The translations under genes and the position numbers were made by a program. This document shows, piece after piece, positions 41,660-57,616 of a DNA stretch of 64,000 nucleotides (position 1 is its first letter; every line of letters begins with the position of its first letter). The stretch lies in contig CAYLXA010000002.1 in NCBI GenBank assembly GCA_964387845.1, forward strand, positions 64,001 to 128,000, read 5' to 3'. The notes beneath the pieces are model-generated. The model searched no databases and had not been told where the DNA came from. It saw only the letters and a list, made by a program, of their open reading frames with translations. Source of the DNA: an uncultured bacterium. GTDB taxonomy: Bacteria > Omnitrophota > Omnitrophia > Omnitrophales > Abzuiibacteriaceae.

Positions 41660-41661
41660 TT

Positions 41662-43747: not shown

Positions 43748-45547
43748 ATGACACAGCCGCAAGCAATCAAATACAGCTCTCTGCTTTATTTTATATTGCA
43801 GTATAAAAAAAATTTTTTTGTTTTATTAACTGCAACTCTCGCCGTATCATTTTTTGAAATTTGTCAATTGGCCGCAATGCTGCCAATTTTGAACCGTTTA
43901 ATTCCTGCCACGTCACCCAACGTGCCTGTGCCCGGGTTAAAATTTTTTGAAGGTGCCATTGCAATGGCTCCCTTCAAAGAAACACTAATCTCGGCCGTGG
44001 CTGTGTTTGCTGTTGTTGTGATTGTGCGTTTTTTTATTGTATTCACCGCCGAGCTTTTAAATCATCGAACAACCCAGGAAATCATCTATCAAACAAAAAG
44101 AAAAATTCTCAAAAAAACCTTGGCATCCAAGTACCAATTTTTCCTCGACAGTAAGCACGGAGACCTTTTTTTTATTTGCATTACGGCGCCCGAGAATGCC
44201 GGCGCTTATTTGTCTATTTTCGTTTCAGCTGTGATTTACTTTTTTACCACCATTGCAATTCTAGGGTTTTTGCTATCGATCAATTTTGTTGTCACTTGTT
44301 CCATTATTTTACTCGGGCTTTTGTATTATTTAGGTACGCGGAAGATTTCCGTGCGCGTTTCGTATGTAGGTGGCCAAAAAAGGATCGGTTTGATCAAAGA
44401 ACAACATGGTCTGATTCAAGAATCTCTGCAAGGCATTAAATACATCATTACTTATGGAAAACAGGAGCCTTTGCAGCGAGTGTTTGACCGATCAAGCCGT
44501 GCATTTTGCGATCAAGTCCATCGAGACACTTTCTGGCAGACTCTATTGCAAAAAGTACCAGAGCCAGCACTTTTACTTCTCGCTTCTTCAGGCATCATTC
44601 TGTTGGTAACGTCTATCGGTCAACAAGCCGTCGGAAGTTATCTCAACATCATCGGCGTTTACTTTTTTGCAATCCAAAGAATTATTCCCGCCTTAAATAA
44701 ATTCAGCACCTCTGCTTTTCAAGTGCTGGCCGGCATGCCCAACTTAGAGGCGTGTCAGAATTTTTTGGAAGCTCCTATTGAAAAACAGGCTGACGGCAGC
44801 ATCGCCGTTGATCAGCTTAAGGATGCGATCAGATTTGAGAATGTCAGTTTGACATATCCAAACGGTAAGCATGTCTTGAAAAGTGTGAGTATGATTTTTA
44901 GGAAGGGGAAAACAACCGCAATTGTCGGGGAATCCGGATCCGGTAAGACTTCGGTGGTTAATTTAATTTTGGGCCTGCACCATGCGAGTAACGGCTCTAT
45001 CCTCATTGACGAACATTCGCTGAGCGATGTCAGAATGAGTACTTTGCTGAGCAAAATCGGCTATGTTGGGCAGGAGACATTTCTACTCCACGCCAGCGTT
45101 AAAGATAACATTGCTTTTTACGATCAGTACTCGGATGAAAAAATCATGGAAGCTGCCAAAATGGCGGACGCGGCTGAATTTATCGAAGAACTGCCAGATC
45201 GATATGACACCATTGTGGGGTCCGGAGGTATGAAGCTTTCGGGCGGCCAGCGTCAACGGCTTGCGATTGCGCGCGCATTGTTGCGGCGGCCGGAGATTTT
45301 AGTGTTAGATGAGGCAACCAGTAACTTGGATAGCATTTCAGAAGGCGTTGTGCAGCAAACCATCAATCACATTGCTCAGTATTATACGGTTATTGTCGTT
45401 GCGCACAAATTATCAACGGTGAAAAGTGCCGATCAGATCTACGTACTGCACGATGGTCAAATAGCAGAATCCGGTACGCATGAAGCATTGATGGAAAGAC
45501 GCGGAAAATATTACCAGCTGCATTTTATTTCCAGCGGTTCTGATTAA
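43748..45547 (+). CDS. ABC exporter, fused TMD-NBD (MsbA/PglK/WzkA-like lipid-linked glycan flippase candidate)
   Basis: Six N-terminal TM helices. Walker A 'GESGSGKTS', signature 'LSGGQRQRLAIARAL', Walker B 'LVLDEATSNLD' and H-loop 'VVAHKLST'. Confidence 0.85.
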   Translation: MTQPQAIKYSSLLYFILQYKKNFFVLLTATLAVSFFEICQLAAMLPILNRLIPATSPNVPVPGLKFFEGAIAMAPFKETLISAVAVFAVVVIVRFFIVFTAELLNHRTTQEIIYQTKRKILKKTLASKYQFFLDSKHGDLFFICITAPENAGAYLSIFVSAVIYFFTTIAILGFLLSINFVVTCSIILLGLLYYLGTRKISVRVSYVGGQKRIGLIKEQHGLIQESLQGIKYIITYGKQEPLQRVFDRSSRAFCDQVHRDTFWQTLLQKVPEPALLLLASSGIILLVTSIGQQAVGSYLNIIGVYFFAIQRIIPALNKFSTSAFQVLAGMPNLEACQNFLEAPIEKQADGSIAVDQLKDAIRFENVSLTYPNGKHVLKSVSMIFRKGKTTAIVGESGSGKTSVVNLILGLHHASNGSILIDEHSLSDVRMSTLLSKIGYVGQETFLLHASVKDNIAFYDQYSDEKIMEAAKMADAAEFIEELPDRYDTIVGSGGMKLSGGQRQRLAIARALLRRPEILVLDEATSNLDSISEGVVQQTINHIAQYYTVIVVAHKLSTVKSADQIYVLHDGQIAESGTHEALMERRGKYYQLHFISSGSD

Positions 45548-45550
45548 GCT

Positions 45551-46693
45551 ATGAAGTCCGTTTTATTTATCAAGCCGCCGATGCGGTACGGTAAGTTTTA
45601 TTTTCGGATCGCGCAATACATCGAGTATTTCAAGAAAAATGATTGGGAAATTAACGTTTTATATCCGGCTCCGGACGGCGCGACACTGGTTCAAAAGCTT
45701 TCAGCGGCGGACATTTTTTATAAAGCATGTCATTTGCTGGCGCAATTTCCAAAGTTTTTGGTAGATCTGGCAAAGTGCGACCTGGTTATTGTATTTCCTT
45801 CGCCCACGATGGTACTTTATGCGGTTTGGGTTGGCTTGTTTCAGAAAAAAATGCTAATTGAACACACGGTTTCTTACATCTCTCACCGGGATGTGTGGCC
45901 TTGGTATCCTGTTTGGCTGGACAGGTTGCTATATCGGCAGTCAGCCGCGGTCATGACTCATACCGAAAGTATGCGCGAAAGCTTGGTGAAGCAGTTTAAG
46001 CTTCCTGGCCGTCAAGTTGTTGCGTCGTACTGTAATGTGGATCTGGAGAAATTTTCTCCCCGATACGATAATGAGGTTTTGTCGTTAAAGAAAAAGTTAG
46101 GCATTCTTTCGAAGAAAGTAGTGTTTTATCATGGGCTGATGCATGAGTGGCATGGCGTGGACTTGATTTTAGAGGCGGCAAATCGAGTATCCCAAAAACA
46201 TTCGGATGTTGTATTCGTGTTCATGACAGGCGTATCGGATATTTTTAACGGATTACCGGATTATATTTTGCATCTAAACGAACGCGATTACTATACGTGG
46301 GAAACGTTGCCGGTTTTTATTCAATTGGCGGATATTTGGGTTAGTGGATTTCGAAATGTTCAGCGCGGCGATCAAACGTTTGGATCTACTTTAATTCAGG
46401 CGCTGGCCATGGGTCGAACCGTTATTACATCCGACAGCCCGGAAAAAAGAAAATTCTTAAGAAATCAAGAAAATGCATTGCTGGTAAAGTCCGAATCCGC
46501 TTCGGCGATCGAGGAAGGTATTTTGTATTGCTTGAGTCATGAATCAGAGAGTAAAAGACTGGGCGCCGAAGCCAGAAAGATAGCGGAGCGTTCTTTCTCG
46601 ATTCAAGCACTCGAGGAAAAGCTTGATCAACTGAGCGCGCATAATTCCGACCGTGCAATTAAAGAATCGCAGCAGAAAGTTTTTGCGCCATGA
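45551..46693 (+). CDS. GT-B glycosyltransferase (GT4-like), divergent
   Basis: C-terminal 'STLIQALAMGRTVITSDSPEKRKFLRNQENALLV' resembles the GT4 nucleotide-binding half. The N-terminal half has weak similarity only. Confidence 0.5.
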   Translation: MKSVLFIKPPMRYGKFYFRIAQYIEYFKKNDWEINVLYPAPDGATLVQKLSAADIFYKACHLLAQFPKFLVDLAKCDLVIVFPSPTMVLYAVWVGLFQKKMLIEHTVSYISHRDVWPWYPVWLDRLLYRQSAAVMTHTESMRESLVKQFKLPGRQVVASYCNVDLEKFSPRYDNEVLSLKKKLGILSKKVVFYHGLMHEWHGVDLILEAANRVSQKHSDVVFVFMTGVSDIFNGLPDYILHLNERDYYTWETLPVFIQLADIWVSGFRNVQRGDQTFGSTLIQALAMGRTVITSDSPEKRKFLRNQENALLVKSESASAIEEGILYCLSHESESKRLGAEARKIAERSFSIQALEEKLDQLSAHNSDRAIKESQQKVFAP

Positions 46694-47355
46694 AACCGGC
46701 AATGGATTCATTGTCATATACTTTCCGAAGGCGGTTGTTGGATAATTCTTTAAATCGCCACTGTGCTCATTTGGAAGAGCCGGTCGTTGAGATTGGGAAC
46801 GGCACCCGCGACCGGCGCGGGCGGTATCAACCGCGGCAATCTAAATGGTTTGTTGTTGATATCGAAAATAGCAAACGCCCTAATTTGCTCGCTGATGGAG
46901 AGCAGCTGCCGTTTCACGACCAATCAGTAGCAACCGTAGTTGCGCTTGAAGTTTTAGAACATGTAAAAAGGCCCGAGCATTTCTTAAAAGAAATTCACAG
47001 GGCGTTAAAACCAAACGGAGAATTTCTTTTAAGCATGCCTTTTTTGTACCGATATCACGCGGCTCCTCATGATTTTCAGCGGTATACGGAACCTAAATTG
47101 AGAACGATTCTGGCGGAATCCGGTTTTTCGATTGAGCAACTTGAATATCACGGATTTTATTTTACGGTGATGAGCGAGCAGATTAAATCGCTGCTGGCTA
47201 GAATTGCACCCAAGTGGTTGCGGCAGTTGTTGGGCATTATGGTGTTGCCGTTTTTATGGTTTCTTGTTTTTCTTGATCGCACATCATGGGTTGCAAAATC
47301 TGATTTTTTGACGAGTTATACAACAGGTTTTTTTGTCGTAGCACGCAAAGCCTAG
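46690..47355 (+). CDS. SAM-dependent methyltransferase (Methyltransf_11/23-like)
   Basis: 'ALEVLEHVKRPEHFLKEIHRALKPNGEFLLSMP' post-motif II/III region. Motif I is degenerate ('VEIGNG'). Has a hydrophobic C-terminal tail. Confidence 0.55.
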   Translation: MKPAMDSLSYTFRRRLLDNSLNRHCAHLEEPVVEIGNGTRDRRGRYQPRQSKWFVVDIENSKRPNLLADGEQLPFHDQSVATVVALEVLEHVKRPEHFLKEIHRALKPNGEFLLSMPFLYRYHAAPHDFQRYTEPKLRTILAESGFSIEQLEYHGFYFTVMSEQIKSLLARIAPKWLRQLLGIMVLPFLWFLVFLDRTSWVAKSDFLTSYTTGFFVVARKA

Positions 47356-47368
47356 AACGGAGAAACAA

Positions 47369-48379
47369 ATGAATCTTAAAGGCAAAAGAGTTCTGGTTAC
47401 CGGAGCCGATGGTTTTATCGGTTCTCATTTGACCGAAGCGCTGGTGAGGCGTGGATGTAACGTACGCGCGTTCGTATTTTACAATTCGTTCAATTCATGG
47501 GGCTGGCTGGATGAGTCGCCAAAGGATATCAGAAAGTCTTTGGACGTGGTTGCTGGAGATGTCCGCGATCCGCACGGTGTCCGAGAAGCCGTAAAGGGAT
47601 GTGACGTTGTCATGCACCTGGCAGCGCTTATTTCAATTCCGTTTTCGTATCATTCGCCGGATGCTTTTGTTGATACAAACATAAAGGGGACTCTCAACGT
47701 GTTGCAGGCATCTCGAGATTCAAAAGTAAGCAAAATTATTCATACCTCCACGAGCGAAGTTTACGGAACCGCGCAGTTTGTGCCCATTACGGAAGAGCAC
47801 CCATTGCAGGGCCAATCACCCTATTCGGCCTCAAAAATTGGGGCTGATCAGATGGCTACGGCTTTTCACTCAGCGTTCCAAACACCGGTTTGTATTTTTC
47901 GGCCGTTCAATACATATGGTCCAAGGCAGTCAGCGCGCGCGGTTATTCCTTCTATTATTATTCAAATCGCAACGGGAAAGAGTGAGATCAAGCTTGGATC
48001 TGTCCATCCAACTCGAGATTTTACCTATGTATCCGACACGGTCGAAGGTTTTATCAAAGCCGCGGAATCAGAAAAGTCGGTTGGCGAGGTGATTAACGGG
48101 GGTAGTAATTTTGAGATCTCAATTTCGGATACCGTAAAATTGATTAGCAAAATCTTAAACCGAAAAATTGCGGTCATAAGCGATAATCAAAGAATTCGCC
48201 CGAAAGCAAGCGAGGTGGAGCGATTGTGGGCTGACAATAAGAAGGCAAAAAAACTACTTAACTGGAAGCCTGCGCATAGCGGTTTAGAAGGTTTTGAAAA
48301 GGGGCTAAGAAAAACCGTGGACTGGATCTCGCAAGCGGATATTTTAAAGCGATACAAAGAAGAGATTTATAACATTTAA
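47369..48379 (+). CDS. NAD-dependent nucleotide-sugar 4,6-dehydratase/epimerase (LegB-like candidate)
   Basis: 'VLVTGADGFIGSHLTEAL' Rossmann fold, plus TSE and YxxxK ('YSASKIGADQ'). It is the first gene of the Leg-type sub-cluster. Confidence 0.7.
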   Translation: MNLKGKRVLVTGADGFIGSHLTEALVRRGCNVRAFVFYNSFNSWGWLDESPKDIRKSLDVVAGDVRDPHGVREAVKGCDVVMHLAALISIPFSYHSPDAFVDTNIKGTLNVLQASRDSKVSKIIHTSTSEVYGTAQFVPITEEHPLQGQSPYSASKIGADQMATAFHSAFQTPVCIFRPFNTYGPRQSARAVIPSIIIQIATGKSEIKLGSVHPTRDFTYVSDTVEGFIKAAESEKSVGEVINGGSNFEISISDTVKLISKILNRKIAVISDNQRIRPKASEVERLWADNKKAKKLLNWKPAHSGLEGFEKGLRKTVDWISQADILKRYKEEIYNI

Positions 48380-48381
48380 CA

Positions 48382-49557
48382 ATGAAGCGAATAAAATCCA
48401 ACATAGACGCCACAAGTGTTCTGAAGGCTGTTAGGAAGTGCTTGCCCGGGGACAGTCGCCCCATCCAACTTCACGAGCCCTGGTTTGCCGGCAACGAGCA
48501 GAAGTATGTCAGTGCGTGCATTAAGAGCGGGATTGTTTCATCGATCGGGCCTTATGTTGAACAGTTTGAGAAACAATTGATCCGATTGACAGGCTCAAAA
48601 TTTGCAATTGCCACGATCAACGGAACAGCTGGGCTTCATACGGCACTCCGAATGGCCGGAGTAGAGGCAAATGATGAGGTTTTAGTGCCGTCATTGTCAT
48701 TCGTTGCAACATCAAATGCGATCGCGTATTGCGGCGCTATTCCTCATTTTATTGACAGTGAGATGCGGGCGCTTGGCGTTGATCCGCACAAGCTTCAGGA
48801 TTATTTGGTAAAAATATCCAAACGGCGAAATAGCGGCTTCATCAATAAAACAACAGGCCGGAGAATAAGAGCGGCGGTTGTGGTGCATACATTCGGCCAC
48901 CCGGCGGATCTTGACGCTATCCAGGCAGTTTGCAAAAAATTTAAACTTCCACTAATTGAAGATGCTGCAGAATCGATCGGATCCTATTACAAAGGGAAGC
49001 ACACCGGTACAATCGGAGACTTTGGTGTTTTAAGCTTTAACGGCAACAAAACAATCACGTCAGGCGGCGGAGGCGCGATTTTAGTACAGAATCAAAAACT
49101 GGCAAAACATCTCCGGCACATTACAACCACCGCTAAAATACCTCATGCTTGGCGTTATTATCATGATGAAATCGGATATAATTATCGGCTTCCCAATCTA
49201 AACGCTGCGCTTGGCTGTGCGCAATTGGAGTCGCTGCCGATGTTTATCAAGCGCAAACGGGCCTTAGCCAAACGTTACGAGAAGGCTTTCTCCCATATTA
49301 ATGGAGTTAGTTTTATTAAGGAACCTCCTTTTGCAAAAAGCAACTACTGGCTAAATGCTGTCAGGCTGGAAGGTGTTGGATTGCGGGAAAGAGATCGGTT
49401 TTTAACGCTTATGCACACGCACAACATTAAAACAAGGCCGGTGTGGACACTGACGCATCGTCTTCCTATGTATCGAAATTGCCCGCGAATGGATATGTCC
49501 GTATCAGAGAAAATTGAAAAAGAAACTATTAACCTGCCCAGCAGCCCAGCGTTATGA
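48382..49557 (+). CDS. DegT/DnrJ/EryC1/StrS-family PLP-dependent sugar aminotransferase (LegC/PglE-like)
   Basis: 'LHEPWFAGNEQKYVSACIKSG' N-terminus. PLP-lysine region 'SFNGNKTITSGGGGAIL'. Confidence 0.85.
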   Translation: MKRIKSNIDATSVLKAVRKCLPGDSRPIQLHEPWFAGNEQKYVSACIKSGIVSSIGPYVEQFEKQLIRLTGSKFAIATINGTAGLHTALRMAGVEANDEVLVPSLSFVATSNAIAYCGAIPHFIDSEMRALGVDPHKLQDYLVKISKRRNSGFINKTTGRRIRAAVVVHTFGHPADLDAIQAVCKKFKLPLIEDAAESIGSYYKGKHTGTIGDFGVLSFNGNKTITSGGGGAILVQNQKLAKHLRHITTTAKIPHAWRYYHDEIGYNYRLPNLNAALGCAQLESLPMFIKRKRALAKRYEKAFSHINGVSFIKEPPFAKSNYWLNAVRLEGVGLRERDRFLTLMHTHNIKTRPVWTLTHRLPMYRNCPRMDMSVSEKIEKETINLPSSPAL

Positions 49558-51737
49558 AGCGAAGAATTTGTGTAGTTACTAGTTCGCGCGCCGATTTTGG
49601 TCATCTGCAGTGGGTCATGACCTATCTGAAAAAAGATCCGAGAGTTCGCTTGCAAGTTGTGGTGACCGGCTCACACTTATCTCGCGCGCATGGAACCACC
49701 TTGCGCGAAATTCAGGACGCGGGAATTTCTGAATCTGCTCGGATTCCAATCATTGCAAAAGGGGATTCTGTTGTTGCGATAACGCAAGCGGCTGGAATGG
49801 CATTGAGCAGATTTGCAAAGGTCTTTGACAGGCTCAAACCCGAATTGCTGCTGGTTGTGGGAGATCGTTATGAAATTCATTCGGCCGTAACGGCGGCGCT
49901 TCTCGCTAAAATTCCGGTTGCACATATTGCCGGTGGCGACATTACGGAAGGGGCATTCGATGACGCGTTGCGGCACAGTATCACCAAAATGGCTCATTTG
50001 CACTTTGTGACAAATGCCGTGTCGGCGAAACGAATTCGGCACATGGGAGAAAACCCTTCGCATATTTTTAACGTTGGAAATCCTGCGCTTGACCATGTAA
50101 CGAAATCAAAATTATTCACTAAAAACGAAATTGAGGAGAAGCTTGCTTTCAAAATGCGCTCACGCAATATCTTGATTACGTTTCATCCGGTTACGCTGGA
50201 CACCGAACCATCTGACCGGCAATTTAAACAGTTGCTGAGCTCGCTGAATCGGTTGGGAGACGAATATGGCCTTATTTTTACTAGGCCCAACGCGGATCCG
50301 GCAGGACAAAAGATATCTAAATTGATCGATCATTTTGTCAAAACGCATTCAAACGCTATTGTAAAAGCCTCGCTAGGTCATTTGTTATACTTAAGCATCA
50401 TGAATGAAGTTGATTTGGTTGTCGGAAATTCATCAAGCGGGATTTATGAGGCGCCAACATTTAAAATTCCCACAGTTAACATCGGAAACCGGCAAAAAGG
50501 CCGCTTGCGAGCGGCTTCTGTGATTGATTGCGCGCCGAGCAGGGCGGCAATTAGCCGAGCAATTCGGTCAGCTCTAGCAAAGGATTGCTCGCAGGTTGAA
50601 AATCCTTACGGACGGGGAAATAGTTCCGAGCAAATTTATAAGATTATTCGCTCTGTCCAGAACCCAAAAACACTAATTCAAAAGAAATTTTATGATGCCG
50701 GCGTGCCCACTAAAACTGGGCCGGTTTATGTGATCGCCGAAGCGGGGGTGAATCATGGCGGCTCGCTGAAACTTGCAAAAAAACTGATCGACGCAGCTTC
50801 GCAAGCCGGCGCTAATGCGGTCAAGTTTCAAACTTTTGATTCGGATATGCTGGTAACGCGACAAGCTAAAAAAGCAAAATACCAGCAAGACACAACCGGC
50901 AAAAATGGGTCTCAATATGAAATGCTCAAAAAATTAGAACTCAGCCAGAAAGATCATTTTGCGCTGAAAGCTCACTGCAAAAAAAGAAAAATTGATTTTT
51001 TATCGACCCCTTTTGATTTAAAAAGCCTTGATTTCTTAATCAACAATCTGCAGGTCCGGAAAATTAAAATATCTTCAGGCGATATTACCAACGGGCCGCT
51101 ACTGTTGAAAGCTGCGGAATCAAAACTTCCGATTATTTTATCAACCGGAATGTCAACGCTTGACGAAATTGAAGCTGCCGTAAGATTGATCGAGAAAGGA
51201 TATCGATCCAGCGCCTCTCTTTTAAAATCAAACTTAAAACTGCTTCATTGTACAAGCGAATATCCGGCCTCATTTTCTGATATGAATTTGTTATCGATCG
51301 ATTTTTTAAGAAATTATTTTCAATTGGATGCCGGGCTGTCAGATCATTCGAGCGGGATAGCAGCTGCAATTGCAGCCGTAGGGCGCGGCGCATCCATTAT
51401 TGAAAAACACATTACTTTGAATAAAAGCATGGCAGGCCCCGATCACCGCGCATCGCTTGATCCGAATGAGTTTCGAGAACTGGTTCGATCAATTCGCCAA
51501 GTCGAAGAAGCTATGGGATCCTACGTAAAAAGGCCGGCAGCGTCAGAATTAAAAAACCGAAGCGCAGCCAGAAAGAGCATCGTCGCTTCCAAGCCGATTA
51601 AACGCGGAGAAAGGCTGACCCGTCACAATCTGGCGCTGAAGCGTCCCGGTGTCGGGATCAGCCCCATGAATCTTTCGGAAGTCATAGGACGACTATCAAC
51701 CAAAAATTATAAAAAAGACGATATCATTGTTATCTAA
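49554..51737 (+). CDS. fused hydrolysing UDP/GDP-HexNAc 2-epimerase (NeuC/LegG-like, N-terminal half) and nonulosonic acid synthase (NeuB/LegI-like, C-terminal half)
   Basis: Residues 1-~375 read 'VVTSSRADFGHL…VVGDRYEIHSA…HIAGGD…RHSITKMAHLHF', which align with E. coli NeuC. Residues ~385-727 read 'VYVIAEAGVNHGGSLKLAKKLIDAASQAGANAVKFQTF', the NeuB TIM barrel, and end in a C-terminal SAF domain. Confidence 0.85.
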   Translation: MKRRICVVTSSRADFGHLQWVMTYLKKDPRVRLQVVVTGSHLSRAHGTTLREIQDAGISESARIPIIAKGDSVVAITQAAGMALSRFAKVFDRLKPELLLVVGDRYEIHSAVTAALLAKIPVAHIAGGDITEGAFDDALRHSITKMAHLHFVTNAVSAKRIRHMGENPSHIFNVGNPALDHVTKSKLFTKNEIEEKLAFKMRSRNILITFHPVTLDTEPSDRQFKQLLSSLNRLGDEYGLIFTRPNADPAGQKISKLIDHFVKTHSNAIVKASLGHLLYLSIMNEVDLVVGNSSSGIYEAPTFKIPTVNIGNRQKGRLRAASVIDCAPSRAAISRAIRSALAKDCSQVENPYGRGNSSEQIYKIIRSVQNPKTLIQKKFYDAGVPTKTGPVYVIAEAGVNHGGSLKLAKKLIDAASQAGANAVKFQTFDSDMLVTRQAKKAKYQQDTTGKNGSQYEMLKKLELSQKDHFALKAHCKKRKIDFLSTPFDLKSLDFLINNLQVRKIKISSGDITNGPLLLKAAESKLPIILSTGMSTLDEIEAAVRLIEKGYRSSASLLKSNLKLLHCTSEYPASFSDMNLLSIDFLRNYFQLDAGLSDHSSGIAAAIAAVGRGASIIEKHITLNKSMAGPDHRASLDPNEFRELVRSIRQVEEAMGSYVKRPAASELKNRSAARKSIVASKPIKRGERLTRHNLALKRPGVGISPMNLSEVIGRLSTKNYKKDDIIVI

Positions 51738-51746
51738 AGACGCGTC

Positions 51747-52340
51747 ATGAGAGAAGAGATTGATAAACCCATTATTGTGATTGGGGCTGGAGGGCATGCC
51801 AAAGTCCTGATCGACGCACTGCGGTTAATGGGATGCCAGGTGTTGGGCGCAACCGAAAAAAAACCGGAAATAATTGATCAGGCAAAACTTCCGGTGAAGC
51901 TTTTGGGAAACGACGATGAAATATTAAAGCATTCACCCGACAGCATACTGCTCGTTAACGGTGTAGGCCAAGTTGGGGTAGGGCCAAGTCGCTCTCAGAT
52001 ATTTGATAGATATAAATCAAAAGGCTATCGGTTTGCAATCATCCAACATCCCCGAGCCGTTGTCGCGGCTGATGTTGAATTGCATGAGGGCGCACAAATT
52101 ATGGCTGGTGCAATCATTCAAACTGCTTCCAAAATTGGCTGTAACACCATTGTGAATACAGGCGCATCGATTGACCATGATTGCCAAATTGAAAGCCATG
52201 TCCATATTGCGCCTGGAGCCATTTTGTGCGGGATGGTTGAAGTGGGAGAGGGATCTCATATTGGCGTTGGTGCTATTCTCATTAACAATACAAAAGTGCC
52301 GCGAAACAGTTTTATTAAGTCCGGTACTCTGGTGAAGTAA
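51747..52340 (+). CDS. hexapeptide-repeat sugar N-acetyltransferase (NeuD/PglD/LegH family)
   Basis: 'IIVIGAGGHAKVLIDAL' Rossmann-like N-domain followed by a left-handed beta-helix. Confidence 0.8.
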   Translation: MREEIDKPIIVIGAGGHAKVLIDALRLMGCQVLGATEKKPEIIDQAKLPVKLLGNDDEILKHSPDSILLVNGVGQVGVGPSRSQIFDRYKSKGYRFAIIQHPRAVVAADVELHEGAQIMAGAIIQTASKIGCNTIVNTGASIDHDCQIESHVHIAPGAILCGMVEVGEGSHIGVGAILINNTKVPRNSFIKSGTLVK

Positions 52341-52350
52341 GGAGTTTGTT

Positions 52351-53397
52351 ATGGAAATTTGGAAAAAAACGCTCGTATCAAAGTTAACGCCGATCAAAGA
52401 AGTGATTAAAGTAATCGATGCGGGATCTTTGCAAATTGCTTTGGTCGTTGATGAAAATTATAAGCTTTTAGGAACCGTTACCGACGGTGATGTTCGCCGC
52501 GGCATTTTAAAAAACATATCCATGAATGATCCCGTGCACAAAATTATGCAGTCGAAACCAGTCATTGCAAAACTGGGCGAGGAGCGAGAAAAAGTTTTGG
52601 TACGCATGAAAGAAAAGCAGATCAATCAAATTCCATATCTTGATCAAGCGGGGCGTGTCAAAGGACTTGAAGTTATCCATGATTTGCTTAACGGATCCGC
52701 AAAAGATAATCCTGTATTATTGATGGTGGGCGGCCTGGGAAGCCGGCTGCAACCAATCACAAACGATCTTCCGAAGCCGCTCATTAAAGTCGGTGGCAAG
52801 CCGATTTTGGAACGCATTTTAGAGGATTTGATTGAATACGGCTTCCGGAAGTTTTACTTTTCCGTATTTTATAAATCCGAAATGATTCAAGAATATTTCG
52901 GTGATGGCAGCCGCTGGGATGTGGAAATTCGGTATATTCGCGAGCAAAAGAGAATGGGCACTGCCGGCGCCTTGAGCCTTCTTCCTGAAAAGCCTTCGGC
53001 ACCAATTTTAATTATGAACGGAGATTTGGTTACAAAAGTTAATTTTCAGCATCTTTTTGATTTTCATCAGCAGCAATCCGGCGATTTGACCGTGTGCGTC
53101 CGTGAGTATGATTTTCAAGTGCCTTACGGCGTTATTAAAATGAACGGTCATCTTATTTCAGGCATCGACGAAAAACCGGTGCATAAGTTTTTTGTAAACG
53201 CCGGAATTTATTTGATGGAGCCTGCGCTTTTGCGAAACATATCCAAAAACCGTTTTTTAGACATGACCCAGCTGATTGAAAAATTGAAGTCCAAAAAGAA
53301 AATTCTCGCATTTCCGATCCGTGAATATTGGCTCGATATCGGCCGGCACGACGACTTAAAGCGTGCAACCGAAGAAATCGAGTCGTTGTTTAAATAA
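52351..53397 (+). CDS. CBS-pair plus sugar-phosphate nucleotidyltransferase (PtmE-like, GDP-HexNAc forming candidate)
   Basis: Two N-terminal CBS motifs. Then 'LMVGGLGSRLQPITNDLPKPLIKVGGKPILERIL', the G-x-G-T/S-R-L NTase signature. Confidence 0.8.
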   Translation: MEIWKKTLVSKLTPIKEVIKVIDAGSLQIALVVDENYKLLGTVTDGDVRRGILKNISMNDPVHKIMQSKPVIAKLGEEREKVLVRMKEKQINQIPYLDQAGRVKGLEVIHDLLNGSAKDNPVLLMVGGLGSRLQPITNDLPKPLIKVGGKPILERILEDLIEYGFRKFYFSVFYKSEMIQEYFGDGSRWDVEIRYIREQKRMGTAGALSLLPEKPSAPILIMNGDLVTKVNFQHLFDFHQQQSGDLTVCVREYDFQVPYGVIKMNGHLISGIDEKPVHKFFVNAGIYLMEPALLRNISKNRFLDMTQLIEKLKSKKKILAFPIREYWLDIGRHDDLKRATEEIESLFK

Positions 53398-53420: not shown

Positions 53421-54224
53421 ATGAACTCATCAACCGTACCCCAAATCAGCATTTTACTTTGTGTTCACAACGGTGAACGAACAGTTGAGCAAGCGATCAA
53501 CAGTCTTCTTGCTCAGACGTTTAAGGATTTTGAGCTCATCGTGATCAATGATGGGTCAACCGATTCTACTCTCGCTCAGTTAGAGAAATTTCAAGACCCA
53601 AGAATCTTCATTCAAAGCATCCCCCGGCGCGGACTCACGAAAGCGCTCAATGTGGGGCTTGCTCAATGCCGCGGTGAATTCATTGCGCGCGTCGATGCTG
53701 ATGATGTTGCGCTGCCTAATCGGCTTGAGCGCCAGGCTGTATTCTTAAATAAGCATCGAAGCGTGGGCGTGATTGGGACCGGGTATGAAATTTTAACTGA
53801 AAACGGTTCGCGAAAACGGGCGACCGTCCCTCTCCTGGAAACCGATTATGAAATCAAGCAAGCTCTTCCGAAATTTAACCCGTTTCACCACGGGTCAGTC
53901 ATGATTCGCCGGCAAATTTTGATCGAAGAGGGCGGCTATGATGAAAATTTTAAACTGGCTCAGGATTATGAACTGTGGCTCAGGCTATCAGGACGTTGCC
54001 AAATGGCTAATATCGGGGAAGTTCTGATGGTGCGCAGAGAGGGCCGAGAAACACTCAAAAAAGAACGCGAACAAAATTGGTACGGAATCAAGGCCAGATT
54101 GAAAGCAATTCAGCGAGGGAATTTAAGTTTTTGGAACGTGATCTACATTCTTCGCCCATTTTTAGTTGTGCTAACACCGGACTGGATAAAATCCGTTATT
54201 CGAAAATTGATCCGAAATGCCTAA
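53421..54224 (+). CDS. glycosyltransferase family 2
   Basis: 'ISILLCVHNGERTVEQAINSLLAQTFKDFELIVINDGSTDST' and a 'DADD' DxD motif. Confidence 0.8.
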   Translation: MNSSTVPQISILLCVHNGERTVEQAINSLLAQTFKDFELIVINDGSTDSTLAQLEKFQDPRIFIQSIPRRGLTKALNVGLAQCRGEFIARVDADDVALPNRLERQAVFLNKHRSVGVIGTGYEILTENGSRKRATVPLLETDYEIKQALPKFNPFHHGSVMIRRQILIEEGGYDENFKLAQDYELWLRLSGRCQMANIGEVLMVRREGRETLKKEREQNWYGIKARLKAIQRGNLSFWNVIYILRPFLVVLTPDWIKSVIRKLIRNA

Positions 54225-56412
54225 AATTAAAATCCTATTCATTGATTCTCGCGGAGACTTTGGCGGGGGATCGAACCATCTGCTGTCCATTTTGGAATCT
54301 CTGGATCCGAATAAATTCGACGCATTTGTTGCAGCGCCGTCCGGTCAAGGCAATTCGGAGAAATACCGGAAACTTTGCCGTGCATTCTGTGATATTCCAT
54401 TCCGGAAATTTTCACTCGATGCTTTTCGTGATTTAGTTGAGTTTGCCGAAACCCACCAAGTTCATTTTGTCCATTCCCACGGCCGCGGGGCTGGCATCTA
54501 TAGCCGCTTTATTTTTTGGAAAACCAAAATTCCGGCCATTCATACTTTTCACGGAATTTCTTATGGATTCTTCGGAGCATTCATCGACCGCTTTTTAAAA
54601 AAATGGACAGCCAGGTTTATCCATGTTTCTGATTCTGAGCGGGAAGCCGCGGCTAATCTTGGGGTTTCCGATCCGCGCAGGGCAGTGACCATCTACAACG
54701 GGATCGACTACAGGTGTTTTCAATCGGGTAAAAGCAGAAAAGATGCAAAAGCATCGCTTGGGTTAAGTTTAGATCATTTTGTCATTGGATGCGTGGCTAG
54801 ATTTGATGCTTGCAAGCGCCACCAAGATTTAATCGAAGCCTTGGCTTTATTGACTACTCGCTATCCCAATCTGCGTTTAGTGCTGGCTGGTGACGGCGAA
54901 ACGCGTATAAAGATCGAGCAATTGGCAAATGAATGTGGTGTCTTGGGTAAAGTTTTATTTTTGGGAGAACAAAAAAATCCTCAAATCGTTTATGCGGCAT
55001 CTGATGTATTCGTGCTCGCATCCGAATTTGAGGGCCTTCCTTTAGCGCCTCTGGAGGCGATGGCAGCGGGTTGTGCGGTTGTGTTATCGAATGTGCGCGG
55101 CAACCGGGATGTGGTTCAGGATGAAAAAGACGGCCTGCTATTCGAAGCAAAAAATCCGGAAGCGCTTGCTGCTGCCATTGCGCGGTTAATCGGCAGCCAG
55201 GAGCTGCAGTCAAGACTTATCGAATCGGCCCACAGGACCGTGATTGAGCGATTTTCCATCGATCGCATGCGTGCACAAATTTATGCTTTTTATGAAACCC
55301 TTGTTCCGGTTCCGAAATTCCGGAAAGCCGCGTTGACGCACGACTGGCTTTTTCATATGCGCGGAGGGGAAAAAGTTTTGGAGTCCATCGGAGAACTTTT
55401 TCCGCTTGCGCCCATCTACACGCTTTTTCTCGATCAGAAAAAACTGTCTGAATCCATTAACCGGCACCAGATAATTGCCTCGTGGCTGAACCAGATCCCT
55501 CTCATTGCCGGGTTTTACCGGTATCTACTCCCCCTATTTCCGTTGGTGATGAAGCAATTTGATATCAAAGATCATCTTTTAATCGTTAGCAGCAATCACT
55601 GCGCTGCTAAATCTATCTCGAAGGGGAGGCGCGCGCTACACATTTGCTATTGTCACGCACCAATGCGCTACGCATGGGGTTTTGAATCAGAATATTTTGG
55701 CCGGTTTCCGTTTTTTCTCCGCAGTCTGATCAGGACAGTTCTGAGCTGGCTTCGTTATCGCGATCTCGGATCTAATCCCGGCGTCGATCACTTTATTGCA
55801 AACTCTCAGAATATTAGAAAACGCATCAACCAATACTATGCAAGAGAAGCTGATGTGATTTACCCGCCGATTCAGAAGCGGTTGAAACAGTGTGAGCCTG
55901 CCCAATCGAGCGAGTACTTGATTGTCTCGGCGCTCGTTCCTTACAAACGGATCGATATAGCCGTGCAGGCATTCAACGAATTACAGCTTCCGCTAACAAT
56001 CATCGGGTCCGGCCCCTTATTGCCATCTCTGCAAAAGCAAGCGAAATCGAATATCCGGTTTTTGGGTTGGCAGCCTGATCATGAAGTCGCAAAATATTAT
56101 GCCAGCTGCAAAGCGCTCATTTTTCCGACCGAAGAAGACTTTGGCATGGTTCCGGTTGAGGCAATGATGTACGGAAAGCCGGTGATTGCGTTTGCGTGCG
56201 GCGGCGCGCTTGAAACCGTGATTCCCGGAAAAACAGGACTGCTTTTTGATGCACAAACACCGGAAGCGCTAACCAACGCCGTAAAACAGTTTTCCATTAA
56301 TCAGTTTGACTCTAAAGCCATTACAGCCTATGCTCAGAAATTTAGCGCCGAGCACTTTAATGATGCCGTTATAAAACTTTTGTCGGAATTTACCAATGGT
56401 CAAGCAAACTAA
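54217..56412 (+). CDS. tandem di-domain glycosyltransferase (two GT4 modules fused)
   Basis: Module 1 has 'ASEFEGLPLAPLEAMAAGCAVVLSNVRGNRDVVQDEKDGLLF'. Module 2 starts at 'ALTHDWLFHMRGGEKV' and ends with 'PTEEDFGMVPVEAMMYGKPVIAFACGGALETVIPGKTGLLF'. Confidence 0.75.
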   Translation: MPKIKILFIDSRGDFGGGSNHLLSILESLDPNKFDAFVAAPSGQGNSEKYRKLCRAFCDIPFRKFSLDAFRDLVEFAETHQVHFVHSHGRGAGIYSRFIFWKTKIPAIHTFHGISYGFFGAFIDRFLKKWTARFIHVSDSEREAAANLGVSDPRRAVTIYNGIDYRCFQSGKSRKDAKASLGLSLDHFVIGCVARFDACKRHQDLIEALALLTTRYPNLRLVLAGDGETRIKIEQLANECGVLGKVLFLGEQKNPQIVYAASDVFVLASEFEGLPLAPLEAMAAGCAVVLSNVRGNRDVVQDEKDGLLFEAKNPEALAAAIARLIGSQELQSRLIESAHRTVIERFSIDRMRAQIYAFYETLVPVPKFRKAALTHDWLFHMRGGEKVLESIGELFPLAPIYTLFLDQKKLSESINRHQIIASWLNQIPLIAGFYRYLLPLFPLVMKQFDIKDHLLIVSSNHCAAKSISKGRRALHICYCHAPMRYAWGFESEYFGRFPFFLRSLIRTVLSWLRYRDLGSNPGVDHFIANSQNIRKRINQYYAREADVIYPPIQKRLKQCEPAQSSEYLIVSALVPYKRIDIAVQAFNELQLPLTIIGSGPLLPSLQKQAKSNIRFLGWQPDHEVAKYYASCKALIFPTEEDFGMVPVEAMMYGKPVIAFACGGALETVIPGKTGLLFDAQTPEALTNAVKQFSINQFDSKAITAYAQKFSAEHFNDAVIKLLSEFTNGQAN

Positions 56413-57616
56413 AGCAGTTCTTATTTTGGATCAAATAGTACATATTGCGGTAGCGCTTGCTATCATGTCTTATATTTTTTCACGTGGGCTCTTGCTTGTC
56501 GGTATTTATACAGCGCTGATTGCTTGGCTGCTTGGCCGAATCTTAAAGCGAAAGACCATGCTTCCGCACACAGAGTGGAATATTTATCTGGGAATTATTT
56601 TGACTGCACTCATAGCTTCGGTGATCGTAAACGGAAATTGGTACGAAGGAGCGCGGGGCCTGCACAAGTGGCTAAGAGCTCTATTGCTATTTCTATTTGC
56701 CGCTGATTACCTGAGAGATAAGGAAAGCAAAAAAAACGTTTTACTGGCCCTTGGCACCGCGTTTTTGGTTGCTGTACTAGACGGGATTGCGCAGTATTTT
56801 ACTGGCAGAGACTGGATCCGCGGATTTGAGCTTGGGTATGCCGATTTTGTACCGCGCGTGACTTCATCGTTTGGTTATTTTGGCATGTTCGCTTCGTTCC
56901 TGGTCATGGCAGGGCCTATTGTATTTTGGTTTTTTTGGAAAAATTCTTCAAAACTAATCCGTTACGGACTTCTAGGAATTTCAATGTCTTTGGGTCTTCT
57001 AAATCTTTATCTGACTCGGGCGCGCGGTGCGTGGATTTCGCTGGCAGCAATGTTCGTTGCTTATTTGGTAATTACAAAGCGATGGGTCATGATTACGGTG
57101 CTGGCAGTAGCAACCGCTGCATTTTTGTTTTTACTGCCTCGCGACATTGTGCTGCACAGTCCAAAGGAAGTGGGAATCGACAAAACAATTCACCACCGCA
57201 TAATCTTATCCAACGAAGCCCTGACGATTTGGAGAGCGAACCCGCTTTTTGGATGCGGGCTTAATACGTATGTGCAGAATGTGGAAAAATATAATTTACC
57301 AAATTCACATGAGGTTAGAAATTATTACGCTCACAATGGCTACCTTCAATATGGCGCAGAGACCGGTATTGTTGGTTTTTTAGCGCTCGTATTCTTTTTA
57401 TTTCGGTATGGGATGGTGGCTATCTATAAATGCATTACTGAGCGCGCCGCTAGATTTTCTTTGAATCACGCATTATTAGTTTCAAACGGCAGTTTCCTCT
57501 TTTACATGTTTTTTGATACAATTTTTCACAATTTACAGCCATTTTTACTTTTTTGGTTTTTGCTTGGTTGGCATGCGTCTGTATTGCGGTATTCCCATGA
57601 AAACATTACGTCATAG
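56396..57616 (+). CDS. Wzy_C-family membrane protein (O-antigen ligase WaaL / O-oligosaccharyltransferase PglL / polymerase family)
   Basis: About 10 TM segments with a large periplasmic loop carrying 'YAHNGYLQYGAETGIVG', which is the conserved H-N-x-x-L / 'gaetG' region of WaaL/PglL. Confidence 0.7.
   Translation: MVKQTKAVLILDQIVHIAVALAIMSYIFSRGLLLVGIYTALIAWLLGRILKRKTMLPHTEWNIYLGIILTALIASVIVNGNWYEGARGLHKWLRALLLFLFAADYLRDKESKKNVLLALGTAFLVAVLDGIAQYFTGRDWIRGFELGYADFVPRVTSSFGYFGMFASFLVMAGPIVFWFFWKNSSKLIRYGLLGISMSLGLLNLYLTRARGAWISLAAMFVAYLVITKRWVMITVLAVATAAFLFLLPRDIVLHSPKEVGIDKTIHHRIILSNEALTIWRANPLFGCGLNTYVQNVEKYNLPNSHEVRNYYAHNGYLQYGAETGIVGFLALVFFLFRYGMVAIYKCITERAARFSLNHALLVSNGSFLFYMFFDTIFHNLQPFLLFWFLLGWHASVLRYSHENITS

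Follow-up and report, generated by a model that had tools for sequence, protein, structure and literature searches.

A Probable Legionaminic Acid Gene Module with a Fused LegG–LegI Protein in an Uncultured Omnitrophota Bacterium

Organization of the Locus

The window, the whole 64,000-nucleotide stretch of DNA analysed here, comes from the metagenome-assembled genome of an uncultured Omnitrophota bacterium. ORF calling shows that positions 47369-53397 are wholly occupied by five co-directional, tightly packed ORFs on the plus strand, in which the stop of LegC overlaps the start of the LegG–LegI fusion gene (ATGA):

47369-48379, plus strand: LegB, 336 aa, predicted NAD-dependent, retaining NDP-GlcNAc 4,6-dehydratase, extended SDR (TIGR04180)
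48382-49557, plus strand: LegC, 391 aa, predicted PLP-dependent 4-aminotransferase, DegT family (TIGR04181)
49554-51737, plus strand: LegG–LegI fusion, 727 aa
49554-50690, plus strand: LegG domain, residues 1-379 of the 727-aa fusion, predicted hydrolysing NDP-diNAcBac 2-epimerase (TIGR03568, PF02350)
50715-51737, plus strand: LegI domain, residues ~388-727, NeuB-family nonulosonate synthase with SAF domain (TIGR03569, PF03102)
51747-52340, plus strand: LegH, 197 aa, predicted left-handed beta-helix 4-N-acetyltransferase, NeuD/PglD family (TIGR03570, PglD_N, Hexapep)
52351-53397, plus strand: PtmE/LegX-like protein, 348 aa, CBS pair and sugar-1-phosphate nucleotidyltransferase (PF00571, PF00483)

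The first-pass annotation had delimited this block exactly, and the gene set that it described is real. Its count of six consecutive genes holds for enzyme domains and not for ORFs, of which there are five (as in its own list), because the epimerase and synthase form one polypeptide. Motif inspection finds the catalytic and cofactor motifs intact in every protein of the Leg set.

The block lies within a surface-glycan gene cluster of ~47 kb, whose WcaJ-type initiating transferase, Wzy_C protein, and MsbA/PglK-like ABC transporter mark it as a lipid-linked glycan cluster. The gene set is a standard one for legionaminic acid, a sialic-acid-like surface sugar, and is ordinary apart from the joining of two successive enzymes in one protein. 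The fusion is unusual and rare, a point on which the first-pass annotation did not comment; also unusual is the relocation of the LegF and amidotransferase genes to a site upstream.

LegB, LegC, LegH, and the PtmE/LegX-like Protein

The dehydratase reaches 522 bits on TIGR04180, the curated model for LegB, and so passes its cutoff of 475 (3.7e-157); the model for the inverting PseB gives it just 71 bits (cutoff 408), in agreement with the retaining type that the first-pass annotation had made a test of its reading. The motifs GADGFIG, STSE, and YSASK are present. Other SDR paralogues in the window (five ORFs tested) reach at most 189 bits on the LegB model. LegC passes TIGR04181 (524 bits, cutoff 420, 1.6e-157) and not the PseC model (223 bits, cutoff 423), and it carries the PLP-lysine motif SFNGNK; GDP-perosamine synthases (209 bits) rank above the C. 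jejuni aminotransferase 1o61 (187 bits) among its named solved relatives. The acetyltransferase passes TIGR03570, a subfamily-level model of the NeuD/PglD family (181 bits, cutoff 161, 1.6e-53). Its top solved relative is the GDP-perosamine N-acetyltransferase PerB (4ea7), at 90 bits versus 50 for the UDP-specific PglD.

In the PtmE/LegX-like protein the CBS pair occupies residues ~9-113, a segment that also matches the KpsF/GutQ CBS region, and the nucleotidyltransferase occupies residues 123-344 (PF00483 NTP_transferase, 3.5e-38), with the motif GGLGSRL. The closest solved relatives of the catalytic domain are mannose-1-phosphate guanylyltransferases. This architecture is the one described for Cj1329/LegX; two CBS repeats joined to a nucleotidyltransferase have been proposed as a marker of the Leg pathway, and Leg synthesis genetically requires LegX/PtmE (bioRxiv 10.1101/2022.03.25.485807).

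The LegG–LegI Fusion

The N-terminal half of the fusion passes TIGR03568, the NeuC model (434 bits, cutoff 236, 3.4e-130), and PF02350 spans residues 25-366. Its top solved relative is a hydrolysing GDP/UDP-N,N'-diacetylbacillosamine 2-epimerase (5zlr/5xvs, 260 bits; human GNE, 169 bits). The C-terminal half comprises a PF03102 domain (residues 411-658) and a SAF domain (674-725) and retains the metal-ligand motifs SDH and EKH. It passes TIGR03569, the NeuB model (461 bits, cutoff 400, 2.5e-138), whereas its 272 bits on the PseI model fall short of the cutoff of 340. The libraries used hold no LegI-specific model, and the model that the synthase half passes is named "N-acetylneuraminate synthase." Because sequence models cannot separate LegI from Neu5Ac synthases, the LegI assignment rests on gene context.

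Placement of the synthase among its relatives, which the first-pass annotation had also proposed as a test, favors the Leg assignment. The LegI half is 50-55% identical to synthases encoded in LegB/LegC/PtmE contexts, versus 35% for C. jejuni PseI and 36% for N. meningitidis NeuB. A neighbor-joining tree places it inside the Leg-context clade; this tree contains just three outgroup references, its inner nodes are unresolved, and its sole well-supported split (0.815) sets C. jejuni PseI and N. meningitidis NeuB apart from all other sequences.

An assembly artefact was considered as the source of the fused ORF and rejected, since the identical protein is present on two assemblies and a database search finds fused homologues at 42-55% identity. 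The fusion is rare, though the databases already contain such proteins. Fused homologues occupy the same Leg module, in one case adjoining genes for flagellin and a Maf-type protein. No paper describing an epimerase–synthase fusion was found in the literature searched.

Upstream LegF Candidate and Accessory Genes

Further genes of the nonulosonate block lie upstream of the module:

36608-38560, plus strand: tentative candidate nonulosonate glycosyltransferase, 650 aa, directly upstream of LegF
38565-39281, plus strand: LegF candidate, CMP-nonulosonate synthetase (PF02348), 8 kb upstream of the module
39278-40150, plus strand: WbuZ/HisF-like protein, putative accessory acetamidino-forming subunit (TIGR03572)
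40122-40817, plus strand: HisH glutaminase, putative accessory acetamidino-forming subunit (TIGR01855)
42500-43723, plus strand: WbuX-family N-acetyl sugar amidotransferase, putative accessory enzyme converting acetamido to acetamidino (TIGR03573)

The acylneuraminate cytidylyltransferase that had been noted at 38565-39281 is indeed there (PF02348, 3.3e-19). The ATG at 38565 is a likelier start than the GTG at 38538 that marks the mechanical ORF, because it puts the motif ARGGSKG near the N terminus and avoids overlap with the preceding ORF. The top curated match is the PseF model, at 131 bits and below its cutoff of 206, and the closest solved relatives are CMP-Neu5Ac synthetases (84-86 bits); the sugar that this enzyme would activate is not assignable from such matches. 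In 63 of 80 related loci PtmE is followed by a cytidylyltransferase, with which the protein shares 28-44% identity.

The amidotransferase genes also have counterparts near other Leg modules. The WbuX-family protein passes TIGR03573 (347 bits, cutoff 203), and its homologues stand beside the module in 17 related loci. WbuZ TIGR03572 is the top model for the WbuZ/HisF-like protein (274 bits, below the cutoff of 300), and HisH scores above the cutoff of TIGR01855 (209 versus 105 bits); homologues of this pair come after LegF in 15-16 related loci. The nonulosonate block also contains a TylF-like methyltransferase, a 2OG-Fe(II) oxygenase, and two more methyltransferases, and several SDR genes occur elsewhere in the cluster. 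Probably the WbuX/WbuZ/HisH amidotransferase, together with the methyltransferases, turns one acetamido group into an (N-methyl)acetamidino group.

For the nonulosonate transferase, the best candidate is, tentatively, the 650-aa protein adjoining LegF. It has no Pfam match; its C-terminal 170 residues weakly match TIGR04396 (52 bits) and NF046086, the "BFO_1060 family glycosyltransferase" (38 bits), both below cutoff.

Conservation of the Module

Most of 80 genomes show the module in synteny; they span many phyla, among them Bacillota, Pseudomonadota, Nitrospirota, Bacteroidota, and Riflebacteria, and include an archaeal MAG. Homologues of LegG and LegI occur in 79 and 78 of the 80 related loci, those of LegC in 71, LegB in 65 (median identity ~63%), LegF in 63, and LegH in 50. 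PtmE homologues occur in 67-69, and 65 of the alignments take in the CBS N terminus. The commonest order is B-C-G-I-H-E-F. In E. coli surface-polysaccharide loci the order is dehydratase, LegC, neuC, neuB, acetyltransferase, nucleotidyltransferase, (Gfo/Idh/MocA), cytidylyltransferase.

Pathway Assignment

The block very probably constitutes the biosynthetic core of a GDP-GlcNAc-dependent CMP-legionaminic acid pathway of the kind originally elucidated in Campylobacter jejuni. Equivalog-level models for LegB, LegC, NeuC, and NeuB are passed, as is a subfamily-level model by the acetyltransferase, and the Pse-specific models for PseB, PseC, and PseI all fail. These results, the synteny, and the GDP-sugar relatives uphold the legionaminic reading of the first-pass annotation. 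The features that it had singled out, a left-handed beta-helix acetyltransferase, a NeuC-type 2-epimerase, and a CBS nucleotidyltransferase, are also used as criteria in published work: Friedrich et al. 2017 argue from the presence of LegG, the absence of PseG, and a PtmE homologue (PMC5378307). The use of GDP and the stereochemistry of the product are predicted from the closest solved relatives and the literature. Those relatives act on GDP-sugars for three enzymes (LegC, LegH, and the nucleotidyltransferase), which fits the Campylobacter GDP-GlcNAc route. GDP-GlcNAc is the sole substrate accepted by the T. forsythia LegB homologue, and PtmE is specific for GTP (PMC5378307).

By homology, the PtmE/LegX-type enzyme would first combine GTP with GlcN-1-P or GlcNAc-1-P to give a GDP-hexosamine. 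C4/C6 dehydration by LegB, with no inversion at C5, would yield GDP-2-acetamido-2,6-dideoxy-xylo-hexos-4-ulose, to which LegC would add an equatorial 4-amino group; acetylation of this group by LegH would give GDP-diNAcBac. The LegG half would then remove GDP hydrolytically and epimerize C2, forming 2,4-diacetamido-2,4,6-trideoxy-D-mannose, which the LegI half would condense with PEP to Leg5Ac7Ac. The fusion would pass this free, non-nucleotide intermediate directly between the two active sites. The upstream LegF would complete CMP-Leg.

An origin of these genes in pseudaminic acid synthesis is effectively refuted. The two routes share superfamilies (SDR dehydratase, DegT aminotransferase, NeuB-family synthase, cytidylyltransferase), and the top curated match of the cytidylyltransferase is PseF, albeit below cutoff; yet the PseB, PseC, and PseI models fail, and a hydrolysing 2-epimerase is present, whereas the Pse route involves no 2-epimerization (PMC5378307). 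No PseG is found in the window, where the sole MurG-like/GT28-like protein is of the glycolipid-synthase type (29 bits on the PseG model, cutoff 154), and no GNAT PseH occurs among window ORFs scanned against Pfam or NCBIfam. It is also very unlikely that the fusion makes Neu5Ac from UDP-GlcNAc, with a hexapeptide NeuD-type O-acetyltransferase and NeuA, leaving the dehydratase and aminotransferase to another sugar. The fusion does pass models named UDP-GlcNAc 2-epimerase NeuC and N-acetylneuraminate synthase NeuB, its homologues are publicly annotated under such names, and CMP-Neu5Ac synthetases are the closest solved structures to the cytidylyltransferase. The NeuC and NeuB models, however, date from before Leg and Neu were distinguished; the genes form a single co-directional run with LegB and LegC, which they overlap or adjoin, a linkage kept in most of the 80 loci; the epimerase half scores higher on the diNAcBac 2-epimerase than on GNE, and the synthase half lies closer to Leg-context synthases than to NeuB. 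Moreover, PtmE/LegX has no role in Neu5Ac synthesis (bioRxiv 10.1101/2022.03.25.485807).

Less improbable, though still unlikely, is a Leg-type module with a different end product (8eLeg, Aci-type, or a new derivative remodelled from CMP-Leg) or a different carrier (UDP, as in Legionella or Bacillus subtilis). Additional adjacent genes are believed to convert CMP-Leg to 8eLeg, Aci, and 8eAci, and a like origin, from the shared core module plus such genes, has been proposed for other Leg stereoisomers (PMC5595891), so the final sugar could be an epimer or derivative. The unexplained methyltransferases, the oxygenase, and the SDR genes elsewhere in the cluster would fit such remodelling, but the module has no adjacent short-chain dehydrogenase or epimerase. 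As for UDP, the solved LegG relative is annotated for both substrates; against this, a TIGR04180-type LegB with a PtmE/LegX protein is the signature of the GDP route, the top-scoring named solved relatives of three enzymes are GDP-sugar enzymes, and published UDP routes use PglF/PglE/PglD-type enzymes.

Comparison with Known Systems

The CMP-Leg pathway of C. jejuni, as summarized in later accounts, comprises LegB/Cj1319, LegC/Cj1320, LegH/Cj1298, LegG/Cj1328, LegI/Cj1327, LegF/Cj1331, and PtmE/Cj1329 (Schoenhofen et al. 2009 via PMC5378307, bioRxiv 10.1101/2022.03.25.485807). All seven enzyme types occur in the window, a likeness drawn from enzyme type and published description: shared are the TIGR04180 dehydratase, TIGR04181 aminotransferase, hexapeptide acetyltransferase, hydrolysing 2-epimerase, NeuB-family synthase, and CBS-pair nucleotidyltransferase. 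In contrast to C. jejuni, LegG and LegI form one polypeptide, LegF lies 8 kb upstream rather than beside PtmE, and the context is a lipid-linked glycan cluster, not a flagellin glycosylation island. Also in contrast, scanning of window ORFs against family libraries revealed no PtmF/PtmA-type (Gfo/Idh/MocA-type) genes. The scan showed no PgmL or GlmU genes either, so that precursor supply must rely on genes elsewhere.

The Leg-derivative locus of Tannerella forsythia FDC 92A2/UB4 (BFO_1063-1074), which supplies a modified Leg to a surface glycan, has a GDP-specific LegB/LegC, LegG, LegI, LegF, and PtmE set like that of the window (PMC5378307, PMC5420450). The transferase family of its BFO_1060 is the one weakly matched, below cutoff, by the 650-aa protein adjoining LegF. 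The T. forsythia genes are separate, and the host phylum is different. The Acinetobacter baumannii lga module (PMC5595891) and the E. coli loci L082/L083 share the order dehydratase, LegC, NeuC, NeuB, acetyltransferase, nucleotidyltransferase, cytidylyltransferase. Identity between the window proteins and those of L082/L083 is 33-51% except for the dehydratase: in E. coli an enzyme of ~400 residues, annotated as a UDP-GlcNAc 4,6-dehydratase, takes the place of a TIGR04180-type LegB. The E. coli loci also encode epimerase and synthase separately, unlike the fusion in the window.

Other fusions are known in nonulosonate pathways, namely the mammalian GNE epimerase–kinase and the Leptospira NeuB–phosphatase (PMC3438082). 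Like these, the LegG–LegI protein joins two consecutive pathway steps in one ORF, but its partners differ, being a hydrolysing 2-epimerase and a synthase.

Enzymes of the nonulosonate block

The interval 47369-53397, described in the first-pass annotation as six consecutive genes, is filled exactly by five open reading frames on the plus strand; the six enzyme domains are all present, two of them within one 727-residue protein. Neighboring frames overlap or are separated by no more than 11 nt. Pfam and NCBIfam scans give the following assignments, with model cutoffs in parentheses.

47369-48379, plus strand: ORF1, LegB, 336 aa; TIGR04180 (NAD-dependent 4,6-dehydratase LegB), 522 bits (475)
48382-49557, plus strand: ORF2, LegC family aminotransferase, 391 aa; TIGR04181, 524 bits (420)
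49554-51737, plus strand: ORF3, 727 aa, residues 3-365, hydrolyzing 2-epimerase (LegG); TIGR03568, 434 bits (236)
49554-51737, plus strand: ORF3, residues 391-725, NeuB-family synthase with SAF domain (LegI); TIGR03569, 461 bits (400)
51747-52340, plus strand: ORF4, NeuD/PglD-family hexapeptide acetyltransferase (LegH), 197 aa; TIGR03570, 181 bits (161)
52351-53397, plus strand: ORF5, PtmE/LegX-like protein, 348 aa; N-terminal CBS pair (residues ~9-113), then an NTP_transferase domain (123-344)

Characteristic motifs are intact in LegB (GADGFIG, STSE and YSASK), in LegC (SFNGNK, with the PLP lysine), in the synthase half (the metal-ligand motifs SDH and EKH) and in the nucleotidyltransferase (GGLGSRL). 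The window encodes further extended SDRs, namely RmlB, RmlD, a TviC-like epimerase, a decarboxylase-like protein and an ADP-heptose epimerase. As an internal control, the LegB model gave at most 189 bits for the five other window SDRs scored, as against 522 for ORF1. The CBS domains proposed for the nucleotidyltransferase are confirmed, as a tandem pair, and the gene is encoded with the leg genes. Its architecture is that published for PtmE (Cj1329) and LegX, in which two tandem CBS repeats are combined with a nucleotidyltransferase domain (bioRxiv 10.1101/2022.03.25.485807). The same study found that Leg-dependent flagellin glycosylation requires LegX, and proposed LegX as a bioinformatic marker of the legionaminic acid (Leg) pathway.

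Pseudaminic, sialic or legionaminic acid

A pseudaminic acid (Pse) pathway is rejected because every Pse-specific model falls below its cutoff. The dehydratase, which passes the LegB model, reaches 71 bits on PseB (cutoff 408); it is not of the inverting PseB type and is predicted to be retaining. LegC scores 223 bits on the PseC model (cutoff 423). For the synthase half, PseI is excluded by a model score of 272 bits (cutoff 340) and by 35% identity to C. jejuni PseI; identity to N. meningitidis NeuB is 36%. Neither of the two outcomes named in the first-pass annotation as refuting a Leg reading is seen. The acetyltransferase, with its PglD_N and Hexapep domains, is at the family level an LbH protein, as had been proposed, and the window ORFs that were scanned include no GNAT of the PseH type. 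The hydrolyzing step is likewise of the NeuC type. A MurG-like (GT28/MGDG-synthase-like) gene at 60340-61455, the sole GT28-like gene, was considered as a hidden PseG and rejected, since its product belongs to the glycolipid-synthase type and reaches 29 bits with the PseG model (cutoff 154).

An N-acetylneuraminic acid (Neu5Ac) pathway has in its favor that the halves of the fusion protein pass the generic NeuC and NeuB models. It is nevertheless an improbable reading, to judge from gene context, because the NeuC/NeuB-type pair sits between LegC and LegH/PtmE both here and in most related loci. The best solved match of the epimerase half is the enzyme designated GDP/UDP-N,N'-diacetylbacillosamine 2-epimerase (hydrolyzing) (5zlr/5xvs), at 260 bits, as against 169 bits for human GNE. 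With the LegB and LegC models passed, the Pse models failed and synteny conserved, the Leg-type interpretation stands: the genes probably constitute a complete GDP-type set for CMP-Leg, and a product of the Leg type is highly probable.

Assignment of the synthase half to LegI is decided by gene context. No LegI-specific model or structure exists, and this half was scored on the generic NeuB-family model. It is 50-55% identical to synthases encoded near LegB, LegC and PtmE, among them the ones from two E. coli loci. A neighbor-joining tree of 133 sequences, with three references taken from PDB alignments (C. jejuni PseI, N. meningitidis NeuB and 6ncs), places the synthase half inside a large group of Leg-context sequences and leaves PseI and N. 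meningitidis NeuB apart from it, a split with support of 0.815. Because the inner nodes are weakly supported (at most 0.26 each) and the references are only three, none of them a characterized LegI, the tree cannot alone prove LegI, and context carries the assignment.

A probable GDP route

Structure comparisons of three of the enzymes agree, independently of one another, in suggesting GDP-linked intermediates, though they are not proof. LegC matches GDP-perosamine synthases (209 bits) better than the C. jejuni aminotransferase 1o61 (187 bits), which we take to be PglE. LegH matches the GDP-perosamine N-acetyltransferase PerB at 90 bits and the UDP-specific PglD at 50 bits, and the nearest solved relatives of the nucleotidyltransferase domain are mannose-1-phosphate guanylyltransferases. 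The reasoning of the first-pass annotation, which took a LegG, the lack of a PseG and a PtmE homolog as hallmarks, is exactly that applied to T. forsythia by Friedrich et al. 2017 (PMC5378307). In that work the T. forsythia LegB accepts GDP-GlcNAc only, and PtmE is cited as strictly GTP-specific. Strict dependence on GDP and the exact final structure are somewhat less certain than the Leg-type character of the product. For product identity, the main caveat is the possibility of 8eLeg, Aci or 8eAci, which are thought to derive from CMP-Leg by way of extra adjacent genes (Kenyon et al. 2017, PMC5595891).

The LegF candidate and the upstream genes

The acylneuraminate cytidylyltransferase reported upstream of the block is real (PF02348, CTP_transf_3), with an intact ARGGSKG motif; its ATG at 38565 is preferable as a start to the mechanically chosen GTG at 38538. 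This LegF candidate is 28-44% identical to the module-linked cytidylyltransferases of 63 related loci and scores 131 bits on PseF (cutoff 206); the models assign no sugar specificity. It is followed in order by WbuZ, HisH, a TylF-like methyltransferase, a 2OG oxygenase and WbuX. Between these and LegB come genes for an ABC transporter, a glycosyltransferase of family GT1 and a methyltransferase. The placing of LegF and the amidotransferase genes ahead of the module is unusual.

35906-36589, plus strand: class-I SAM methyltransferase, 227 aa
36608-38560, plus strand: 650-aa protein with no Pfam match, directly upstream of LegF
38565-39281, plus strand: cytidylyltransferase, LegF candidate, 238 aa
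40826-41659, plus strand: TylF-like O-methyltransferase, between HisH and WbuX
41560-42495, plus strand: 2OG-Fe(II) oxygenase, likewise between HisH and WbuX, among the acetamidino genes
43748-45547, plus strand: MsbA/PglK-like ABC transporter
46690-47355, plus strand: class-I SAM methyltransferase, 221 aa

The sugar is probably an amidinated and methylated derivative. A diacetamido residue has a mass of 316 Da (oxonium ion at m/z 317), an acetamidino one 315 Da (m/z 316). The two SAM methyltransferases flank the nonulosonate block and could, by analogy, N-methylate the acetamidino group. Such N-methylation is described from Campylobacter and Legionella. The products of the TylF-like and 2OG genes, homologs of which occur in none of the 80 related loci, may add further modification to the nonulosonate. 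A TylF-type gene does lie between LegB and LegC in one of these loci (L084). The 650-aa protein, encoded directly upstream of LegF, is the best candidate for the Leg transferase. Its C-terminal 170 residues show a weak resemblance to TIGR04396 (52 bits) and to the T. forsythia BFO_1060 glycosyltransferase family (38 bits), with both scores under the cutoffs.

The LegG-LegI fusion

The joining of epimerase and synthase in one chain is rare. Matches from tblastn that span both halves gave the appearance that the fusion is common in reference genomes; reading frames and stop codons show instead adjacent, separate genes, and none of the 53 adjacent epimerase-then-synthase pairs among the 80 reference loci forms a single ORF. 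When 1.84 billion cluster representatives (50%-identity clusters) were searched exhaustively, 7,860 relatives were obtained at E ≤1e-30; among the best 150 of these, about four clusters are colinear epimerase-synthase fusions and about nine have the reverse order. A word-indexed search returned about 43 finer clusters with the epimerase-synthase fusion, at 42-55% identity. True fusions are limited to a few, mostly metagenomic, protein clusters. All three fused homologs whose surroundings were examined lie within the same Leg module: one is followed by Gfo/Idh/MocA, LegF, HisF-like, HisH and WbuX-like genes, and another adjoins flagellin and a Maf-type protein.

Other architectures came to light in the same enzyme families. 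A Nanoarchaeota MAG encodes a 982-aa epimerase-synthase-cytidylyltransferase triple fusion, and several clusters show the reverse order, synthase-epimerase. There are also proteins of 540-585 aa in which an N-terminal extension of 205-247 residues precedes the synthase domain.

Since the fusion joins consecutive steps that share a free-sugar intermediate, it is a reasonable inference that this intermediate may be channeled between the LegG and LegI halves. The rearranged cluster contains the WbuX/WbuZ/HisH amidotransferase, three methyltransferases and a 2OG-Fe(II) oxygenase, and for this reason could yield a new Leg derivative. The two ideas taken jointly, a functional bifunctional enzyme that channels 2,4-diacetamido-2,4,6-trideoxy-D-mannose and a chemically undescribed Leg derivative on the Omnitrophota surface, make a speculative proposal that we regard as rather unlikely to hold in full. 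No paper on such a fusion was found in the literature searched. A natural LegG-LegI fusion could serve as a handy single-protein catalyst in the chemoenzymatic synthesis of Leg.

The surrounding glycan cluster

The first 8 kb of the window carry housekeeping genes (the end of argS, miaA, hflX, rpoN and accD), followed by an ABC ATPase and two GGDEF proteins. A glycan cluster then extends from about 12.8 to 61.5 kb, nearly all on the plus strand, and holds rmlB, rmlD, two UDP-sugar dehydrogenases, many glycosyltransferases and GmhB in addition to the genes already described.

3411-4532, plus strand: deoxyhypusine synthase family protein (PF01916, 1.2e-87), here in a bacterial genome
4529-5488: ADP-heptose 6-epimerase, adjoining the deoxyhypusine synthase gene; TIGR02197, 309 bits (cutoff 275)
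5565-7013, minus strand: sigma-54
9208-12095, plus strand: two GGDEF diguanylate cyclase genes in tandem, immediately ahead of the glycan cluster; one of the two also has a GAF domain
12775-15114, plus strand: 779-aa protein
28853-30499, plus strand: 548-aa protein
32910-34016, plus strand: 368-aa protein
34292-35884, plus strand: 530-aa protein
54217-56412, plus strand: 731-aa protein with two tandem GT4 modules (two Glycos_transf_1 stretches)
56396-57616, plus strand: Wzy_C protein (O-antigen ligase or O-oligosaccharyltransferase-like)
57513-59024, plus strand: WcaJ-type initiating transferase; TIGR03023, 443 bits (cutoff 411)

The four proteins of 779, 548, 368 and 530 aa lie within the glycan cluster and have no match in Pfam; the last three, scanned against NCBIfam as well, have none there either. 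Among minus-strand ORFs of 150 aa or more, only two match a known family, and sigma-54 is one of them. Every named relative of this protein is from Candidatus Omnitrophica/Omnitrophota, at up to 58% identity, and two metagenomic relatives reach 82-84%; the likely host phylum is accordingly Omnitrophota.

The ADP-heptose 6-epimerase implies an LPS-type envelope. The ABC transporter, the Wzy_C protein and the WcaJ-type transferase form a set compatible with O-antigen or capsule assembly or with en-bloc protein O-glycosylation. The position of the leg genes in the glycan cluster makes a lipid-linked surface glycan the most likely destination of Leg, whether O-antigen, capsule or O-linked protein glycan. 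Throughout the window the composition is uniform and gives no hint of a recent insertion. The scans for terminator-like sites (25, against 24.4 in shuffles) and promoter-like matches (in excess at the consensus level only) say nothing about operon limits.

The main value of these findings is a secure annotation. An automated pipeline would call the product of the central gene an N-acetylneuraminate synthase, the name already given to homologs, which wrongly hints at sialic acid when the evidence points to Leg by way of GDP-linked intermediates. What stands out is the rarity of the LegG-LegI fusion, a sugar that is probably an amidinated and methylated derivative, and the host: a complete Leg pathway is placed in Omnitrophota, a candidate phylum known mainly through metagenomes and for which the literature searched held no mention of nonulosonic acids. 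A sialic acid-like surface sugar, probably amidinated and methylated, would be relevant to contacts with other cells or phages. Understanding of the mechanism of the pathway is unchanged.

Relation to known Leg modules

A scan of one genome per species yielded 80 related loci, the source genome not among them, which were then searched with the window proteins. Homologs were counted for LegB in 65, LegC in 71, LegG in 79, LegI in 78, LegH in 50, the CBS-nucleotidyltransferase in 67 and the cytidylyltransferase in 63 of the loci. The CBS N-terminus falls within the alignment for 65 of 69 nucleotidyltransferase homologs. With the genes lettered LegB, LegC, LegG, LegI, LegH, PtmE (E) and LegF, the commonest order is B-C-G-I-H-E-F and the second common order B-C-H-I-G-E-F; WbuX, WbuZ and HisH directly follow LegF in about 16 of the 80 loci. 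The hosts belong to Bacillota, Alpha-, Beta- and Gammaproteobacteria, Campylobacterales, Nitrospirota, Bacteroidota, Riflebacteria, Planctomycetota and Cyanobacteria, and include a Heimdallarchaeota MAG. These counts, and the order shared across many phyla, mark the Leg module as a well-known unit that has been widely transferred.

A distant DNA search of E. coli genomes with a 4-kb query gave a sole match of 278 nt, in LegC, which led to two E. coli loci. In one (L083, NZ_CP034784.1, 10221-18979) the module is part of the O-antigen region, with galF on one side and fnlA/wbjC on the other, and extra epimerase/oxidoreductase fragments stand behind the cytidylyltransferase; in the other (L082, NZ_CP045190.1, 10246-19445) it occupies an island flanked by IS elements, together with a GT52 (sialyltransferase-family) gene. 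Both display the same module order, annotated by PGAP as LegC family aminotransferase, neuC, neuB, acetyltransferase, nucleotidyltransferase family protein, (Gfo/Idh/MocA) and cytidylyltransferase. They differ in the dehydratase, which in E. coli is PglF-like and of another type than the LegB of the window.
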